A DNA stretch of 64,000 bases from contig CAWJCS010000004.1 in the NCBI GenBank assembly GCA_963841435.1, forward strand, positions 32,001 to 96,000. Reading direction: 5' to 3'. The DNA comes from an uncultured delta proteobacterium (GTDB taxonomy: Bacteria > Myxococcota_A > Polyangia > Polyangiales > Polyangiaceae). The notes beneath the pieces are model-generated. The model had not been told where the DNA came from. It worked only from the letters and a program-made list of their open reading frames with translations, and ran no database searches. This document shows positions 2,083 to 18,919 of this stretch, piece by piece. The stretch's first letter is position 1; the number at the start of each line of letters is the position of its first letter. Position numbers and translations under genes: made by a program.

Positions 2083-3920
2083 ATCCCGCCGCTTCCCATC
2101 TGATCCGGCGCGTGCTCGGCCTGCAGGCTGCGTTCACGCTGCTCGGCGCCGCGCTGGTCGCGGTGTTGTCGCCGCGCTTCCTCCTTTTGGGTGGCTCGGT
2201 CGCGATCGAAGGCGCTCGGGCGCTCGGCGTCGGGCTCACGGCGGGCGGGCTCTTTGCGCTCGTCCCGTCGGGGCTCAGGCTAAGGCGCCATCGTTTCGTG
2301 CTGCGGGCGCTCGCGCTCGGCTCGCGTGCCGTCGAGGCGCACGATCTTTACGCGCTCGCCGAGGAGCCGCGGCGCATCATCGTCGGCTGGTTCGTCCCCT
2401 CGGCGCTCGGCTGCGCGCTTTCGACGCTGCCGTTCGGCCCGAAAACGCTGGATGGCGGCACGAGCGTCACGCTGTGCTTGCTCGGTCTCGCCATGGCGGG
2501 CTCGGCCTCGTTGCCGCTGTTCGTCATGCTGCGCACGGCCGTCGCCCGCGCGCTCATGCTCGCGCCCGTCTCCGTGATGCGCGAAGTGATCGACGACGCC
2601 GAGCGGCTCGGGCTCGTCGCGCGGCGCATCCCGCACCGCATGGTGTTGGCCGTCGCGCTACCGGTCGGCTGCCTGGCGCTCGGCTCGTTGCTCATCGTGG
2701 CCGGGCACGTGCGCCGCGCCGACGAGCGAAACCGCGAGGAGACGGCGCGTCTCGTCTCGCGCGCCGCGCTCGAGCCAGAGCCGGGGCCGCAGGCCTGGGC
2801 TGGGATTCGCGAGGCCGTCGTCCAGGCGCGCGCCCTCGGCTTCTACGCGAACTCGCAGCGTGAGCCCGACGAATACCGCGTGGAGCACGGCAAGGGTGGG
2901 CAGCTCATCGTGATAACCCCGCTCGACCGCGGCAGCGCCAGCATGGAGTTTCCGGCGTCGACCGTCACCGTGGTCAACGGCGCGGCGCTGCTCGTCGCGG
3001 CGATCGGCACGCTTCTCGCGGCCCTTGCGGGGCTCGGTGTGGGGCGTGTGCTCGGCGCGGATCTCGAAGCCGCCACGGCCGACGTTCGGGCGCTCGGCAC
3101 GGAAACCGTGATCGGCGGCGGGCGGCGCCTCCTACACCGGGCACGCTTTCCGATCGTGGCGCGCCTGGGGCTCGCGATCGCGCGCCTGACGGGCCGTTTC
3201 CGCGTCTTCGCGCGCGCGCAGGAGCGCACCATCGCCGCCAAGGACGCCGCGGTGCGCATGCGCGGGCTGTTCTTCGCCTCCGTGAGCCACGATCTCAAGA
3301 GCCCGCTCAATGCCATCCTGGGGTTTACCGAGCTCGTGCGCCGCGCGCAGCCGGTCACGGCCGGTCAGGCCGAGAGCTTGAACCTCATCGAGCGGCGCGG
3401 GCGCGAGCTGCTCGCGCTCATCGAGACGATCCTCGACGCCGCGCGCGTCGAGGCGGGCCAGCTCACGCTCGTGCTCGACGCCATCGACGCGAAAACCGTG
3501 CTCGAGCAGTCGATCGTCAAGGGGCGCGACCTCGGAGGCGACTACGACGTGCAGGCCGTCGTCGAGATCGCGCCGGGACTCCGCCCGCTCTCCGTCGACC
3601 GGGTGCGTCTGCCGCGGGCTCTGTCGACCTTCCTCGCCTGCGCGATGCGCGCGGCGCGCGGCCCTACCTTTCGCATCGTGGTCTCGCCGGACGGCCCCGA
3701 CCTTGCCCGCATGGAAATCGAGGTCCAGGGCGAAGCGAGCGTCACCGACATCGCGGCGATCCTCGATCCGACGCGTGCCACGGGCGGCGCGGTGCACCGG
3801 GGGTTCGCCATGGCCCTGCGCCTCGGACGTTCCATCGTCGAGCTGCACCAGGGGTCCCTCTCGCTTTCCAAGCACGAGGACGGCGGCTCGATCGTGCTCC
3901 ACTTGCCGACGGTTGGCTGA
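2079..3920 (+). CDS. Multi-TM HisKA protein with degenerate ATPase domain
   Basis: Several TM helices and an intact H-box SHDLKSPLNAILGF. N, G1 and G2 boxes are not recognisable. GTGA overlap with the upstream kinase. Confidence 0.85.
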   Translation: MNPAASHLIRRVLGLQAAFTLLGAALVAVLSPRFLLLGGSVAIEGARALGVGLTAGGLFALVPSGLRLRRHRFVLRALALGSRAVEAHDLYALAEEPRRIIVGWFVPSALGCALSTLPFGPKTLDGGTSVTLCLLGLAMAGSASLPLFVMLRTAVARALMLAPVSVMREVIDDAERLGLVARRIPHRMVLAVALPVGCLALGSLLIVAGHVRRADERNREETARLVSRAALEPEPGPQAWAGIREAVVQARALGFYANSQREPDEYRVEHGKGGQLIVITPLDRGSASMEFPASTVTVVNGAALLVAAIGTLLAALAGLGVGRVLGADLEAATADVRALGTETVIGGGRRLLHRARFPIVARLGLAIARLTGRFRVFARAQERTIAAKDAAVRMRGLFFASVSHDLKSPLNAILGFTELVRRAQPVTAGQAESLNLIERRGRELLALIETILDAARVEAGQLTLVLDAIDAKTVLEQSIVKGRDLGGDYDVQAVVEIAPGLRPLSVDRVRLPRALSTFLACAMRAARGPTFRIVVSPDGPDLARMEIEVQGEASVTDIAAILDPTRATGGAVHRGFAMALRLGRSIVELHQGSLSLSKHEDGGSIVLHLPTVG

Positions 3921-14442: not shown

Positions 14443-14907
14443 GTGAAGATACCAAGCGCGCTCTTCGGCATCGTGAAGGAGGTGGCGCGACACCTCCTGC
14501 GCCGGCCCGTCGTCGGCATCGGGGCGGCGGCGCGCACGCCGGACGGCCGTCTGCTCCTCATCCGACGCGGCGACACGGGAACGTGGGCGCTACCGGGGGG
14601 CACGCTGGAATGGGGCGAGACGCTGCGCACGGCCTTGGCGCGCGAGGTCGAAGAAGAGACGGGCGCACGTGTGCTCGGGCTCGGACGCCTCGTCGGCGTC
14701 TATTCGGGACCCGAGCGCGATGCGCGCTTTCACGCCGTCACGGTGATCGTCGAGGCTTCCGTGAGCAGGCCCGAAAAACCACCCACAAACCCGCTCGAAA
14801 TCCTCGAGGTGCGGGCTTTTTCCGACGAGGAGATACCGAAGGACCTCGCCTTCGGCATGCAGGACATGCTCGGTGACGCGCGCGCCGGCCGCACGGTGTG
14901 GGAATGA
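14443..14907 (+). CDS. NUDIX hydrolase
   Basis: Nudix box GGTLEWGETLRTALAREVEEETG. Start is GTG 14443 or ATG 14431. Confidence 0.92.
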   Translation: MKIPSALFGIVKEVARHLLRRPVVGIGAAARTPDGRLLLIRRGDTGTWALPGGTLEWGETLRTALAREVEEETGARVLGLGRLVGVYSGPERDARFHAVTVIVEASVSRPEKPPTNPLEILEVRAFSDEEIPKDLAFGMQDMLGDARAGRTVWE

Positions 14908-15995
14908 AACCAACGCTCGTGTTCCTGCCACTCGTCGCGCTCTTCGGTACGGGCTGTGGCCTGCTCGGAGGCGTCCGCGTCGAGACGCTCGACGTGAGCG
15001 CCGAGAAGCCCTCGAACGTCGCGTTCTACGTGGCCGTGACCGAACAGGGGGAGCCCGTGACCGATCTCGAGCCGAAGGACTTCAAGATCTACGAAAACGA
15101 TCAGCTCCTTTCGCCCGGTCAGATCGGGCGGACGTTGCTCGCCGTCGACGCCGTGACCGATCAGCGCGCGCTCTTGCTCGTGGACTTGAGCGGCAATCCA
15201 GGCGTCGATCAGCGCGCGCTCTACGCCCAGGCTGCCGCGGCGTTCGTGCGCAAGCTCGTCGAGAGCATGCCGGTCAGCGTGCGCGCGTACGCCGGCGGAG
15301 AGCGGCTGCTCGGCGTGGCCGACTTCGCGCGTGGGGCGACGCGCGTCGCCGTTCCGGGCCTGGCGACGCTGAAATCATCTGATACGTCGCGCAATCTGAA
15401 CGGCGCGATCCGGGCCGGACTCGAAGAGCTCGACACGCACCAGGGCTCGACCGAAAAGCCCATCAAGCTCGGGACGCTCGTCGTGTTCGCTCGCGGCCCG
15501 GACCTTGCGGGTCGCGTCCCCGAGGACGCCGTTAGCGACGCGCTCGGCGAGACGAAGCACGCCGTGCTCGGCATCGTCATCGGCCCCGATGCTTCCCAGC
15601 TCGATTTCCTGCCGGGTGGCGTCACCCACTCGCAGGACGGCGACGCGCTGCCCATCGCGTTCGAGGAGGCCGGCTCGCGCGTCGCCAAGCTCGCCCACGG
15701 TCACTACCTGGTGGCGTACTGCTCGCCGGCGCGCGCCGGGACGCGCAACGTGCGTCTCGAGGTCGCGTACACGAACGCCGAGGGCAGCGAGCTCAGCGGC
15801 GACACCTACTACGAGCTCGACGCGACCGACTTTCGTTCGGGTTGCGACTCGAGCAAGCTGCCGCGCTTCGAGAAGCCGCCCGCGCAGAAGGGGGCCACGG
15901 CGACGCCCGCCACGGCGACGCCCGGTCCCGCGAGCGCCACCGAAGCGGAGCCCGAGGTCGTCGCACCGCCATCGGGCGGGGACTACGCCCAGTGA
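14904..15995 (+). CDS. VWA-like domain lipoprotein
   Basis: ATGA overlap with the NUDIX gene, lipobox FGTGC, DFKIYEND, LLLVDLSG (degenerate MIDAS) and YLVAYCSPAR. Confidence 0.8.
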   Translation: MKPTLVFLPLVALFGTGCGLLGGVRVETLDVSAEKPSNVAFYVAVTEQGEPVTDLEPKDFKIYENDQLLSPGQIGRTLLAVDAVTDQRALLLVDLSGNPGVDQRALYAQAAAAFVRKLVESMPVSVRAYAGGERLLGVADFARGATRVAVPGLATLKSSDTSRNLNGAIRAGLEELDTHQGSTEKPIKLGTLVVFARGPDLAGRVPEDAVSDALGETKHAVLGIVIGPDASQLDFLPGGVTHSQDGDALPIAFEEAGSRVAKLAHGHYLVAYCSPARAGTRNVRLEVAYTNAEGSELSGDTYYELDATDFRSGCDSSKLPRFEKPPAQKGATATPATATPGPASATEAEPEVVAPPSGGDYAQ

Positions 15996-16360
15996 GCGCC
16001 CCGCCCGGCCCCAGCCCGGTGCGCGTCACGCTGGTGGAGGAGGAAGTGATCCGCGACGGCGGGCCCCGCACCGTGCGCTATTCCGTACGGCACAACGCGG
16101 GCTGGGTGCACGCGACCTCCCACCCGAGTGCGGCGGTAAAATCCCTGGATCGTGGCCCGGGGGTCGTGTTCCGAAGGCACGTCACGCTGCTGCTCGCCCC
16201 CGGCACCGAGGTCGAGCGGGTCGCGCTCGGTCCGGCGCGTCGCACTGCCTCGACGCTCGAGCACCTTACGGGTGGCGCGCGTGGTCCTCGGCAGCGACGG
16301 GACGCGACCCGGTTGCGCGTGGGCTCGAACGGCGCGCTCGAGCCCGAGGGTACAAAATAA
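15992..16360 (+). CDS. Hypothetical protein (122 aa)
   Basis: GTGA overlap with the upstream stop, GC3-biased codons, and a stop immediately before the terminator hairpin. Confidence 0.65.
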   Translation: MSAPPGPSPVRVTLVEEEVIRDGGPRTVRYSVRHNAGWVHATSHPSAAVKSLDRGPGVVFRRHVTLLLAPGTEVERVALGPARRTASTLEHLTGGARGPRQRRDATRLRVGSNGALEPEGTK

Positions 16361-16397
16361 CGCGAGGGCGGCGTCGGTTTCCCGAGCCGCCCTCGCG
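16354..16397 (-). terminator. Intrinsic terminator for a minus-strand transcript (possibly bidirectional)
   Basis: 12-bp stem 16361-16372/16386-16397 plus an inner 4-bp stem with a GAAA loop (minus sense), followed on the minus strand by UUAUUUU. Confidence 0.85.
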
Positions 16398-18059
16398 GAA
16401 GCTGCTTGCCAGTGGTGGGCGCCATCGCGCCGCCTGCCGAGGTTCTCACCGGCTCCCCGATCCGGAGATCGGGGCATCGTTGACGACGAGTGGGTTTTCC
16501 GAACATCGTGACCGCTCGGGTTCGCGCCCATTGGTCACGCGAGGATGGCGACGGTGTTGGCGTTCGCCAGCTTCGATCGACGGGTGCCGGTTGCATCTCG
16601 CCCTCGTGGGGCTCGGCGCGGCGCAAGCGCCACGCGTGCCGGACCCTCTGCGCCGTTGGCTGAGAGAGCCCAGGGTCGGTGCCGTCGATGTCTGACGCTC
16701 CCTGTCGGCTCGCGGCCACCCCGCGCCGGCTTTCCAAGCTGCCGGCCGAGGCCGCCGACCCTTTCGGGTCGGAGCCGCGTGCCCAGGGCACCGGGGCGCC
16801 CACACCCGGATTAGGGATGCAGAGCCACGTGGTGCCCGAAGCGTCTCGTCCTGTCGATGCTCGCAGTGTTGCCACCGTGACTGCCGATCCCTGGCCTTTG
16901 GCCAACGACGCGGGGCAGGACGGGCCGAGCTTCCAGGCGCCTCCGCGCGGCTCCGTCGAGAGCACACGCGGCCACGCCGTGGATCGGGCCGGCCGAGCGT
17001 CCTTGCGGAACTCTGCCTGCCCTGGACCCGTCGATCGAGGACGTGCAAACCCACTTGTCAAAGATCAGCACCCGCGGTTCCGTGTCGGATTGCCGTCGCC
17101 GGGCCCGTTAGGGTCGGCGAGCGGCGGGCGTTGCGATTCACGTCGCTTCACCCGCTTCGGCTTCCGGACCCGCGCTCCGCATCGGCGTTCTCTTCCGAGG
17201 GGGGGCACGGCCCGTTGGCCTCTGACGCTTCCGGGCTCGCGGGGCGAGCGGTCTTGCGACGCACTCGAACCACGCACCCTGCACCTGCCGCCCCGGAGAC
17301 TCTGGCGTGAACCGAGACCCGGATGCGAGCGGGTGAGAAGCGCCTTCCATCGACGACGAGAGCCCAAAAGCTCGCGCCCCGCACATCGCTGTGCGGGCAT
17401 GCCGCGCATTCGGCGAACGGGGGACGAGTCCCACGCACGCCTAGACTCACCCGGTCCGACACGGCCGCAACCGCGCCCGACTCGGGGGAACCACACAGCA
17501 AGCGCCGACTTCTGCAGTCGACACGAAACCCGAGCACACCCGCCGGTGACCCGTTACCTCGTCCGCCGCGCGGTCACCCTCGCGGCGGTTGCCAGGTTTG
17601 GCTACGAGCGGCGAGATGCGAGCTTTCGCTCGAGCCCACCGGCCGTGTCGCCCCTCTCGAGCACGCACATGGCTGTGCGGAGGCCCAGGAGGAGACGGTC
17701 ACGGGCTCCCTTCGTCGTCGTGCTCGCGGGTGGCGCAGCCTGGAGCGCTGTGCACTCACGAGTTGACCGAGGCGATCACCATGTGCCCGCGCGAACGGAC
17801 GCACGGTGGTTGCCGCCAGGAAGCCTTCCCGCCACGAGATGCCGCGCCCGGAGGCGCTGCACGCCACCACCACTAGGGTGGCAAACGACGCTTTTTTCGC
17901 GCGCCGCGCGACTGCCCTCGACGAGGCCAGGGCGCAAACGTGCGGCAACGAGCACCGACCAGGGTGGCTCAGCTGCCAGCCCGGTCGCCGCCCGCTGCGG
18001 CGTCCCCGTGACGTTCTGCGAAACGTGTCACCCGCGAGCAGATGTGCCGCGAGCTTCAT
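16354..18059 (-). ncRNA. Candidate ~1.7 kb highly structured non-coding RNA of unknown class
   Basis: No credible CDS in any frame. Flanked by a promoter and a terminator on the minus strand. Many hairpins carry GAAA/GCAA/GCGA/GUGA/UCCG/CUUG loops in minus sense, and there are multiple 9-15 bp long-range complementarities. Confidence 0.75.
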
Positions 18060-18064
18060 TAAAT

Positions 18065-18093
18065 AATCTAACCACCGAAGCGTCATGATTCAA
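18065..18093 (-). promoter_or_regulatory. sigma70-like promoter driving the candidate ncRNA
   Basis: Minus strand TTGAAT (18093-18088), 17-bp spacer, TAGATT (18070-18065) and an AT-rich discriminator. Predicted TSS ~18057-18059. Confidence 0.75.
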
Positions 18094-18199
18094 GCCCAAA
18101 ACGCGCATGATCGTTGCTATTTTTTTCCACAGCTTGTCTTCAGGTTTCGGTCCCGCCGGGGTTGATGTAGTGAATCGTGCTCTCGACCAAGGATAAAAA

Positions 18200-18406
18200 G
18201 TGCCGATCGATCTTGGGATTCTGCAGGGTGAGCGCGACCTACTCAGGGAAGCGCTGCGTGAGACGGAAGCCGACGTCCGCAAGGTCGAGGCAGATCTCAA
18301 GACGCTTCGCCAGCGCGAGATCCAGACGAAGCGCGAGATTGAAGCGCTCACGACTCTGATTGAGATGAAAGAGCAGCGCGACGCGAAGGGACCGGACGCC
18401 GGCTAG
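18200..18406 (+). CDS. Small coiled-coil protein (68 aa)
   Basis: AAGGA SD-like motif before the GTG start and a heptad-rich charged helix LREALRETEADVRKVEADLKTLRQRE. Confidence 0.75.
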   Translation: MPIDLGILQGERDLLREALRETEADVRKVEADLKTLRQREIQTKREIEALTTLIEMKEQRDAKGPDAG

Positions 18407-18409
18407 CGC

Positions 18410-18826
18410 TCAGAGCTTCGTCTTGCCGAGCTCGAGGACGCGGGCGAACTCGCCCGGCGTGACCGGTACCACCGAGAGGCGAGAACGCCTCAAGAGCTGG
18501 ATCGAGGCGAGCTTCTTGTCGGCGCGAATGGCTTCGAGTGAAACGGGGCTGGCCAGCGCCTTCACGGGCGCCACGTTAACGGCGGACCAGTCGCCCTCCT
18601 TCGCGGTCGGATCGGGGTAGGCCGTGCGCGCGACCTTGGCTACGCCGACGACTTCCTTGCCCTCGTTCGAGTGATAGAAGAGCAGGAGATCGCCCTTCTT
18701 CATGGCACGCAGGTTGTTGCGCGCCTCGAAGTTTCTGACGCCGTCCCAGCGCGTGAGCTTGTCCTTCTGCAGCGTTTCGAAGGCGTATTTGTAGGGCTCG
18801 CTCTTCACCAGGAAATGAGCCGGCAT
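18410..18826 (-). CDS. EVE domain-containing protein
   Basis: LVKSEP, WDGVRNFEARNNLRAMKKGD, FYHS, AYPDPT and RLSVVPVT motifs. Confidence 0.95.
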   Translation of the reverse strand: MPAHFLVKSEPYKYAFETLQKDKLTRWDGVRNFEARNNLRAMKKGDLLLFYHSNEGKEVVGVAKVARTAYPDPTAKEGDWSAVNVAPVKALASPVSLEAIRADKKLASIQLLRRSRLSVVPVTPGEFARVLELGKTKL

Positions 18827-18919
18827 GGCGCGGACGATAGACAAGCCCCGTGCTGCTTGGAAGCGCCCATCGCTCCGCGCGTCGCCCCCGCGGGCGTTCG
18901 CTCGATGCGCCGAGGGGGG

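Follow-up and report, generated by a model that had tools for sequence, protein, structure and literature searches.

A 1.7-kb minus-strand gene of a Polyangiaceae bacterium very probably represents a new family of giant structured RNA in the Polyangiales

Large, intricately folded RNAs are rare in bacteria, and the classes recognised so far comprise the ribosomal RNAs (rRNAs), RNase P and the group I and group II introns, followed by OLE, GOLLD and ROOL. Group II introns begin with 5' GUGYG, end with 3' AY, contain a domain V hairpin and in many cases code for a reverse transcriptase of their own, and OLE is adjoined by the genes of dedicated partner proteins. OLE is a ~600-nucleotide, highly structured, well-conserved, stand-alone RNA that forms part of a ribonucleoprotein (PMC12054373). 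The genes of GOLLD and ROOL lie in prophages or phages, frequently close to tRNA islands, and ROOL forms a homo-octameric cage by means of kissing loops and A-minor contacts (PMC12286853). The subject of the present analysis is a stretch of 64,000 nucleotides from an uncultured delta proteobacterium of the family Polyangiaceae (contig CAWJCS010000004.1, positions 32,001 to 96,000), referred to as the window and numbered from its first letter, and within it the interval from 18057 to 16352 of the minus strand, where an earlier reading made from the letters alone, the sequence-only reading, had proposed an independently transcribed, rRNA-sized RNA of an undescribed class.

With a probability of roughly 0.85, this interval is the only copy in the genome of a gene whose product is a large and highly structured non-coding RNA, transcribed on its own, which measures about 1.7 kb here and between 1.5 and ~2.3 kb in relatives and belongs to an undescribed family with members in many Polyangiaceae genera and in two or more sister families of the same order. 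The original proposal is supported by promoter, terminator, covariation and the lack of any match to Rfam models, and the new family of giant structured RNA is real and very probably expressed. The RNA is about twice the size of the largest bacterial structured RNAs of unassigned function described to date. In a loose sense it joins the large, ornate, stand-alone non-coding RNAs of bacteria, given its covarying helices, its conserved unpaired nucleotides and the fact that it is not part of a messenger RNA.

The comparison with the described systems is instructive in each case. OLE likewise is a highly structured, conserved and stand-alone bacterial non-coding RNA; however, it is found mostly in Bacillota, while the Polyangiales RNA is 2.5 to nearly 4 times longer and is devoid of a consistently adjacent protein gene. 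Similar to GOLLD, the RNA is very large, ornate and defined by covariation, with many hairpins carrying conserved loops, but it is two to three times longer, chromosomal, present as a single copy and without an Rfam match, and the loci examined do not lie in prophages or near tRNA islands, the neighbours in the window being L,D-transpeptidase, NUDIX, EVE and FtsH genes (tRNAs were not scanned for). ROOL is a large structured RNA as well, and two invariant complementary loops of the Polyangiales RNA could make ROOL-like contacts; nevertheless, no match in sequence or model exists, and the RNA is much longer and resides in other taxa and another genomic context. The sequence-only reading had placed OLE, GOLLD and ROOL well under ~1.7 kb, and the RNA is two to nearly four times as long as these. 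Group II introns resemble it in size range, multi-domain fold, long-range closing helices and GNRA loops, yet the RNA possesses its own promoter and terminator, lacks flanking exons, begins differently (GAAG(C/U)UCGCGG) and matches neither domain V nor any Rfam intron model, with no reverse transcriptase among its neighbours. Signs of intron mobility are equally missing, as there is one copy in the genome, one slot in all loci of the genus and nearly always one match per genome. Finally, a 16S-sized rRNA compares well in length, in a promoter with an A/T-rich upstream element, in long-range domain closure and in inferred high abundance. In contrast to rRNA, the Polyangiales RNA matches no rRNA model, is confined to one order, has been lost in some species and evolves fast, with 56-69% identity between clades of a single genus.

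One line of evidence is covariation. Two alignments were used, one of 15 close sequences (A1) and one of 17 sequences from five genera (A6), and consensus folds were computed by RNAalifold (ViennaRNA), with two controls in which the pair partners were slid by 1-3 columns or the alignment was subjected to 500 shuffles. The A1 fold comprises 513 pairs in 65 helices, and standard pairs occupy 88.3% of 6,907 cells, compared with 39.4-42.9% after sliding. Changes on both sides of a pair were found in 257 of the 513 pairs (93-112 in slid controls) and in 812 cells (167-206). The A6 fold, with 454 pairs, behaves alike: 84.2% of its cells are paired (37.0-41.4% when slid), both-side changes affect 291 of 454 pairs (125-149), and the corresponding cells number 1,057 (227-283). 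Not one of the 500 shuffles reached any of these measures in either alignment. The search for compensatory substitutions among homologues, which the sequence-only reading had put forward as a check, returned them in abundance. Long-range helices with compensatory changes close three domains (18039-17538, 17537-17068 and 17038-16507), and such helices also join the 5' end to a segment just before the 3' domain. The RNA folds into more than 60 helices maintained by compensatory substitutions.

The strand follows from the same pairs: G-U and U-G cells outnumber A-C and C-A cells in both folds (775 vs 216 in A1, 958 vs 321 in A6), which, alongside promoter, terminator and the ends of metagenome contigs described below, supports the minus strand as the RNA, as had been concluded from the letters.

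Moreover, the region does not code for protein. The window is gene-dense, and its longest run of flat G+C content at third codon positions (GC3) extends from 16081 to 18270, the next measuring 870 nucleotides, so that the long gap described earlier is genuine. Between about 16350 and 18060, G+C does not depend on codon phase, each of the three lying at 0.62-0.79, as opposed to a GC3 of 0.83-0.93 in the flanking genes, while the overall G+C of 0.68-0.73 equals that of the surroundings. No open reading frame of the region shows GC3 bias, as judged from composition by phase (no formal RNAcode-type test was made), and the frames translate into Arg/Pro/Ser/Ala-rich text, as out-of-frame high-GC DNA does, in line with the initial impression that they lack GC3 bias and protein-like composition. 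When close pairs are compared, no codon phase collects more mismatches than the others to any marked degree (39/39/38, 60/55/57, 33/36/42, 28/24/23 and 96/91/115). Of the 49 internal indels, 48 have a length that is not divisible by three, and single-base indels between close relatives are scattered along the RNA. Conservation tracks base-pairing and not reading frames. Hence neither codon periodicity in composition or substitutions, nor indels in threes, nor similarity to a protein family marks the region, which is present as a single copy in the 7.8-Mb genome.

The gene and its parts, all on the minus strand, are as follows.

16352..18057, minus strand: RNA gene of ~1,706 nt, from GAAGCUCGCGGCACA to the U-run past the terminator, with a 513-pair consensus fold.
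18094..18135, minus strand: upstream control region, with a TGTGGA box (18131-18126) leading into an A-tract and then a T-run before the -35 element.
18065..18093, minus strand: sigma-70-type promoter, with -35 TTGAAT (18093-18088), a 17-nt spacer and -10 TAGATT (18070-18065).
18041..18050, minus strand: closing helices, 5' arm, whose partners are 16475-16497 and the AGCUUC of 16402-16397.
17538..18039, minus strand: Domain 1, ~500 nt, with a long-range closing helix, the hairpin CGUUCGCGCG (17797-17788) and GGGCCUCCG (17686-17678).
17068..17537, minus strand: Domain 2, ~470 nt, closed by GUGCUCGGGUUUCGUGUCGA (17537-17518) pairing with 17068-17090.
17055..17064, minus strand: linker UCUUUGACAA that joins domains 2 and 3, single-stranded, without variation among the 15 close sequences and unpaired in both consensus folds.
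16507..17038, minus strand: Domain 3 with sub-domains 3a-3d, corresponding to helices 42-62 of the cross-genus fold.
16816-16808, 16700-16690 and 16662-16650, minus strand: Domain 3 elements, namely the CCCUAAUCC loop, GAGCGUCAGAC and the CAGCCAACGGCGC hairpin, respectively.
16401..16474, minus strand: 3' domain, consisting of the CCCCGAUCUCCGGAUCGGGG hairpin, GGUGAGAA, the GGCGCGAUGGCGCC hairpin and CCACUGGCAAGCAGCUUCC.
16352..16397, minus strand: intrinsic terminator, in which a GC-rich stem of 16 bp capped by a GAAA loop (16397-16361) precedes UUAUUUUGU (16360-16352).

Both the promoter TTGAAT-17-TAGATT and the terminator of GC stem plus U-run, on which the sequence-only reading had relied, are present, the former conserved across five genera and the latter paired and compensatorily changed in homologues. 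The -35 TTGA and the position of the -10 are kept in all DNA-derived homologues, and the RNA start GAAGCUCGCGGCACA lies at 18057, eight bases beyond the -10. A generic consensus promoter scan did not list the site because it has 8 of 12 consensus matches and the threshold was 9. In the following, G, L, g and f denote genomes, loci or contigs, genera and families, respectively, g1 being the genus of this genome. The pattern TGTGGA(N)AAA..AAAG..GAT...TTTT.G.TTGA upstream of the start is kept in g1, g25, g79, g57 and g42, the TGTGGA box being repeated two or three times in g57 and g42; box and A-tract constitute a candidate site for a regulator, or an UP element. As a further observation, five genera have one to three TGTGGA boxes with an A-tract at a distance of 40-110 nt ahead of the position where the RNA begins (18119-18131 in the window; L226, L231, L232 and L186). 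At the other end, the terminator stem of 16 pairs (helix 65 of the 15-sequence set) is 99.3% paired with 4 compensatory pairs, and in the cross-genus set (helix 66) 10 of 15 pairs show both-side change, the loop reading GAAA in g1 and GUGA in other genera. The generic scan caught only its inner part. Promoter region, 5' end and terminator are conserved across genera.

Within the RNA, conservation extends from closing helices to single loops. The start reads GAAG(C/U)UCGCGG in all genera examined, and across genera the 5' end follows GAAG(C/U)UC(U)GCGGCACA, while the 3' segment follows CCACCACCG(G/A)CAAGC..CUUCC. In the 5' arm, columns 14-18 with 1948-1952 change from U-A to C-G in 6 of 17 sequences; by eye, 5' GAAG(C/U)U pairs with 3' AGCUUC or GACUUCC and C-G turns into U-A in g57, which amounts to one compensatory pair only. 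The closing helix of Domain 1 (columns 20-37 with 634-652) carries both-side changes in 10 of 16 pairs, and those of Domain 2 (columns 653-674 with 1182-1207), 90-93% paired, in 8 of 20. The UCGC loop within CGUUCGCGCG (17797-17788) and the CGCGAA loop in GGCGCGAACC of Domain 3 (16528-16519) are each invariant in 17/17 sequences, and the hairpin loops CGUGAA, UCAC, CUAAAC and AAGAGAAC are nearly so in the same 17. Across genera the linker reads U(C/U)UUUGA(C/A)A(A/U), and the 3' domain is 87-89% identical to that of same-genus homologues. The loops GUUCGCGC of Domain 1 and GCGCGAAC of Domain 3 are exact complements and each invariant in 17/17 sequences, which renders a loop-loop contact plausible; they may form a kissing contact, either intra- or intermolecular. 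Regarding the tetraloop hairpins listed by the sequence-only reading, all exist in the sequence, and for the GNRA loops at ~16866, ~17000 and ~17255 and the UCCG loop at 16455-16474 the helices covary, while those at 17378-17397, 16620-16631 and 17619-17632 lie in stretches that are inserted or variable among homologues.

The RNA also varies in defined places. The clade of this genome carries an insertion of ~150 nt in Domain 2 (17230-17500, minus strand) and one of ~32 nt in Domain 3c (16590-16625), both missing from the other two g1 clades; parts of them reappear in other genera, and they are therefore variable expansion sites. In genus g26, a locus of genome G075 (L194, ~3600-3800, minus strand) contains five tandem copies, 39 nt apart, of a unit with UGGGGGUUUCCCCCAUCGU, forming an expansion segment of repeated hairpins in the RNA.

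Close homologues are available from genomes and metagenomes. BLAST searches of 46 other g1 species gave collinear full-length matches in three (G005, G014 and G049), and a pattern derived from the best-kept 3' part retrieved 15 metagenome contigs, all of which align to the RNA. The close homologues number 14, made up of the 3 genomes and 11 metagenome contigs, and the close sequences fall into three clades with 56-69% identity between them and lengths of 1,488-1,718 nt. In every DNA contig long enough, the g1 gene order is the same: L,D-transpeptidase, NUDIX hydrolase and two unknown genes come first, then the RNA, which is on the opposite strand, and after it the genes of a 68-aa coiled-coil protein and an EVE-domain protein, a further unknown gene and FtsH.

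Five of the 15 metagenome contigs (L045, L049, L051, L055 and L057; 1,488-1,662 nt) contain nothing but the RNA and hence no coding sequence. They start 7-15 nt downstream of the predicted +1 (columns 8-16) and end in columns 1759-1772, where the terminator stem begins, a 3' end that L054 shares. Because DNA contigs would not break five times at the start of transcription, these five are probably assembled transcripts. Since full-length copies thus look like assembled transcripts, the RNA appears to be strongly expressed.

Beyond the genus, the spread was followed with covariance models of one sub-domain, R1 being built on the part of Domain 3 at 16543-16692 and R2 on the same sub-domain with seven distant copies included. 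R1 gave matches in 10 of 151 sampled Polyangiaceae genomes, eight of them at the 3' part of a non-coding stretch of at least 1.9 kb, and six of these eight with collinear nhmmer matches to a full-length profile. The two others, G243 and G115, were dropped, as they lack a long non-coding stretch and yielded nothing in nhmmer at E<=0.01, with weak matches at E 0.2-0.5. R2 detected the RNA in 36 of 151 Polyangiaceae genomes and 27 of 89 genera, almost always with one match per genome, in 13 of 151 genomes of an order-wide sample (f1 6/23, f9 4/23, f11 2/9, other families 0/95) and in 3 of 151 of a class-wide sample, all three inside the order; none was found in 132 genomes of the class families f25-f49. 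Owing to sampling, strict filters and a model of one sub-domain, these counts are lower bounds. The homologues that the sequence-only reading had wished to see were thus found in many genera of the order Polyangiales, and the spread had been understated, the family not being peculiar to this genome. Full-length copies measure ~1.83 kb in g25 and g79, ~1.95 kb in g57 and ~2.19 kb in g42 (G103), and those of other genera ~1.9-2.35 kb, as estimated from the distance that separates the 5' motif from the CGCGAA loop. A three-block pattern run against all prokaryotes, each species being represented by a single genome, picked out 104 stretches, among which only the three known carriers were real. When the G049 copy was used as a BLAST query across the family, 141 of 383 genomes showed short matches (E<=0.001). 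Of 16 such loci checked, 15 lay in coding DNA without other signal and hence represent chance matches of GC-rich sequence; the match in G150 is real.

Several points weigh against the conclusion of an expressed new RNA family. The identification of the five contigs as transcripts derives from contig ends alone, and among the sequencing runs searched no RNA run contained the sequence, the only entries being three soil DNA runs with 0.00-0.16 of its words. Moreover, the RNA is dispensable in some lineages, being reduced to a hairpin in G043 and missing in G044 and G013, and five large near-complete Polyangiaceae genomes gave nothing below E 0.7 with R2. As to structure, the folds were derived from the same alignments in which pairs were counted, and the percentage of paired cells is therefore inflated, but not the excess of both-side changes over the slid controls. 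In variable regions the alignment underlying the fold is surely wrong in parts, and pairing in some helices reaches only 65-75%. Since the loops of the proposed kissing contact do not vary, they offer no covariation, and in the most distant homologues loop 2 is kept, whereas loop 1 was not located with confidence and is not clearly conserved.

Among the alternatives, a cis-acting or antisense transcript, that is a very long leader, a 3' untranslated region or an antisense RNA of a neighbour, is very improbable. It draws some support from the divergent control region which the RNA shares with the small coiled-coil gene in g1 and g57 and with a response-regulator-EAL (RR-EAL) gene in g25 and g79. 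Nevertheless, the RNA gene overlaps no other gene, its own terminator faces the stop codon of the convergent gene, and the transcript-like contigs end at that terminator without any coding sequence. Furthermore, the neighbours change among genera while the RNA is conserved. In g25 and g79 the divergent RR-EAL gene by the promoter is accompanied by a convergent FadL-type gene on the 3' side; in g57 the same FadL-type gene lies 3', and a small divergent coiled-coil gene, as in the window, stands beside an MscS-type channel gene; g38 and g26 have a divergent radical-SAM gene and g42 a TonB-like gene, and the 3' neighbours seen are FadL or HPPK. No protein gene is consistently adjacent to the RNA, and because the neighbours differ between genera, it is very probably not cis-acting.

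A dual-function RNA which mainly encodes one or more small proteins has a very slim chance of being correct. Long random open reading frames do exist in the region, as everywhere in DNA of 70% GC, but the absence of GC3 bias from all of them, the single-base indels along the RNA and the agreement of conservation with pairing speak against translation, save perhaps of very short conserved frames.

The same slim chance is given to an RNA of a mobile or phage-derived element in the manner of GOLLD and ROOL. In favour of this origin, one homologue in family f9 (L229) has a relaxase gene ~2 kb away, and the distribution is patchy with losses. On the contrary, the g1 locus is embedded among housekeeping-type genes in conserved order, with the G+C content of the genome and one copy per genome, and no phage, integrase or tRNA-island context was seen in 15 further loci examined, in which tRNAs were not scanned for.

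Less probable still is membership in one of the known large classes (group II intron, rRNA-like RNA, RNase P, OLE, GOLLD, ROOL or raiA), as a divergent form which the models would have missed. In broad terms, the RNA is reminiscent of them in size and ornate fold; however, the 4,227 models of Rfam 15, which include rRNAs, RNase P, tmRNA, SRP, 6S, group I and II introns, OLE, GOLLD, ROOL, raiA and HEARO, gave no match at the gathering score in the 64-kb window or in nine homologous loci (102 kb). This outcome agrees with the expectation that no full-length match would appear and with the earlier failure to find hallmarks of rRNA, RNase P, tmRNA or group I and II introns. At E<=10, three RNA regions gave 3, 4 and 6 weak matches to small RNAs, mostly on the terminator, with no family common to all three. 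The GAAG(C/U)UCGCGG start, the autonomous promoter and terminator, the fixed locus of the single copy and the want of a reverse transcriptase likewise set the RNA apart. In the full text of the literature no description of such an RNA was found, the works returned being those on GOLLD, ROOL, OLE and raiA only; this search did not cover supplementary tables of surveys (e.g. PMC8632094, PMC2864571), which might list it as an unnamed candidate.

The history of the slot bears on the least probable alternative. In seven other g1 species (L065-L069, L071 and L064), the slot 16360-18200, which lies between the 172-aa gene and the coiled-coil gene, contains genes of RR-EAL and FHA-GGDEF proteins on the other strand and not the RNA, and in three further species it is a mere spacer of 100-150 nt. 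In a tree of the flanking gene, G043 groups as sister to the carrier G049 (support 100/98), yet it retains a spacer of ~150 nt with only a terminator-like hairpin, which implies that the RNA was lost in G043. At its locus (L060, 1885-2031), the leader upstream of the coiled-coil gene is still present, as is the hairpin, whose loop region shares CUCGG.AAACCG with the RNA, so that the locus looks like a clean deletion. The tree as a whole requires at least three changes of carrier state. Ancestrally, the order may have been RNA, RR-EAL, GGDEF and coiled-coil gene, which suggests an old linkage of the RNA with genes of cyclic di-GMP turnover, although such adjacency may reflect mere descent. A decayed protein gene or insertion-element remnant without function of its own, for which the instability of the slot might be cited, can practically be dismissed, since decaying DNA would not be expected to show compensatory pairs by the hundred, or long-range helices that persist in five genera, the slot proteins show no similarity to the 15 RNA sequences (tblastn, all E>1), substitutions have no codon phase, indels almost never come in threes, and the single copy has neither transposase nor reverse transcriptase among its neighbours, as the sequence-only reading, which had named such a remnant as its refutation, had itself observed.

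With the gene understood as encoding a stand-alone structured RNA, its mode of action can be outlined in conditional terms. The RNA would act in trans as a compactly folded particle. Such a particle may serve as the scaffold of a ribonucleoprotein, assemble from RNA only, in the way of OLE, ROOL and GOLLD, or be a ribozyme, and roles as cis-regulatory element, antisense RNA or messenger RNA would not apply. A bolder picture is more doubtful than not, though it deserves mention: the family might constitute the largest class of bacterial structured non-coding RNA besides rRNA, a Polyangiales RNA machine of 1.5-2.3 kb with housekeeping-level abundance, which would be catalytic or would self-assemble into a multimer via GUUCGCGC and GCGCGAAC, and whose role is maybe tied to the ancestrally adjacent cyclic di-GMP genes.

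The genes surrounding the RNA in the window deserve a brief description. The 68-aa coiled-coil protein (18200-18406, plus strand) belongs to no family, with a weak KLRAQ match below threshold, and its gene is divergent from the RNA and also present in RNA-less species; a similar gene of 74-92 aa occupies the same position in g57. Beyond it, an EVE-domain protein is encoded at 18410-18844 on the minus strand. On the other side lie two conserved genes without a Pfam family, at 14898-15995 (365 aa) and 15842-16360 (~172 aa), both on the plus strand; the former has paralogues in most g1 genomes and a distant copy near the RNA in G077 and G090.

Polyangiales are social soil myxobacteria with very large genomes and are known for their natural products. 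Each earlier class of large bacterial RNA taught new things that RNA can do, and the family described here brings to this order three large domains, long-range closure and dozens of invariant unpaired or loop nucleotides, with an expression that appears strong enough for full assembly from environmental RNA. Structural biology gains a natural RNA target of more than 1.5 kb, and microbiology gains a conserved gene to delete, for which the natural losses in sister species could guide the search for function.

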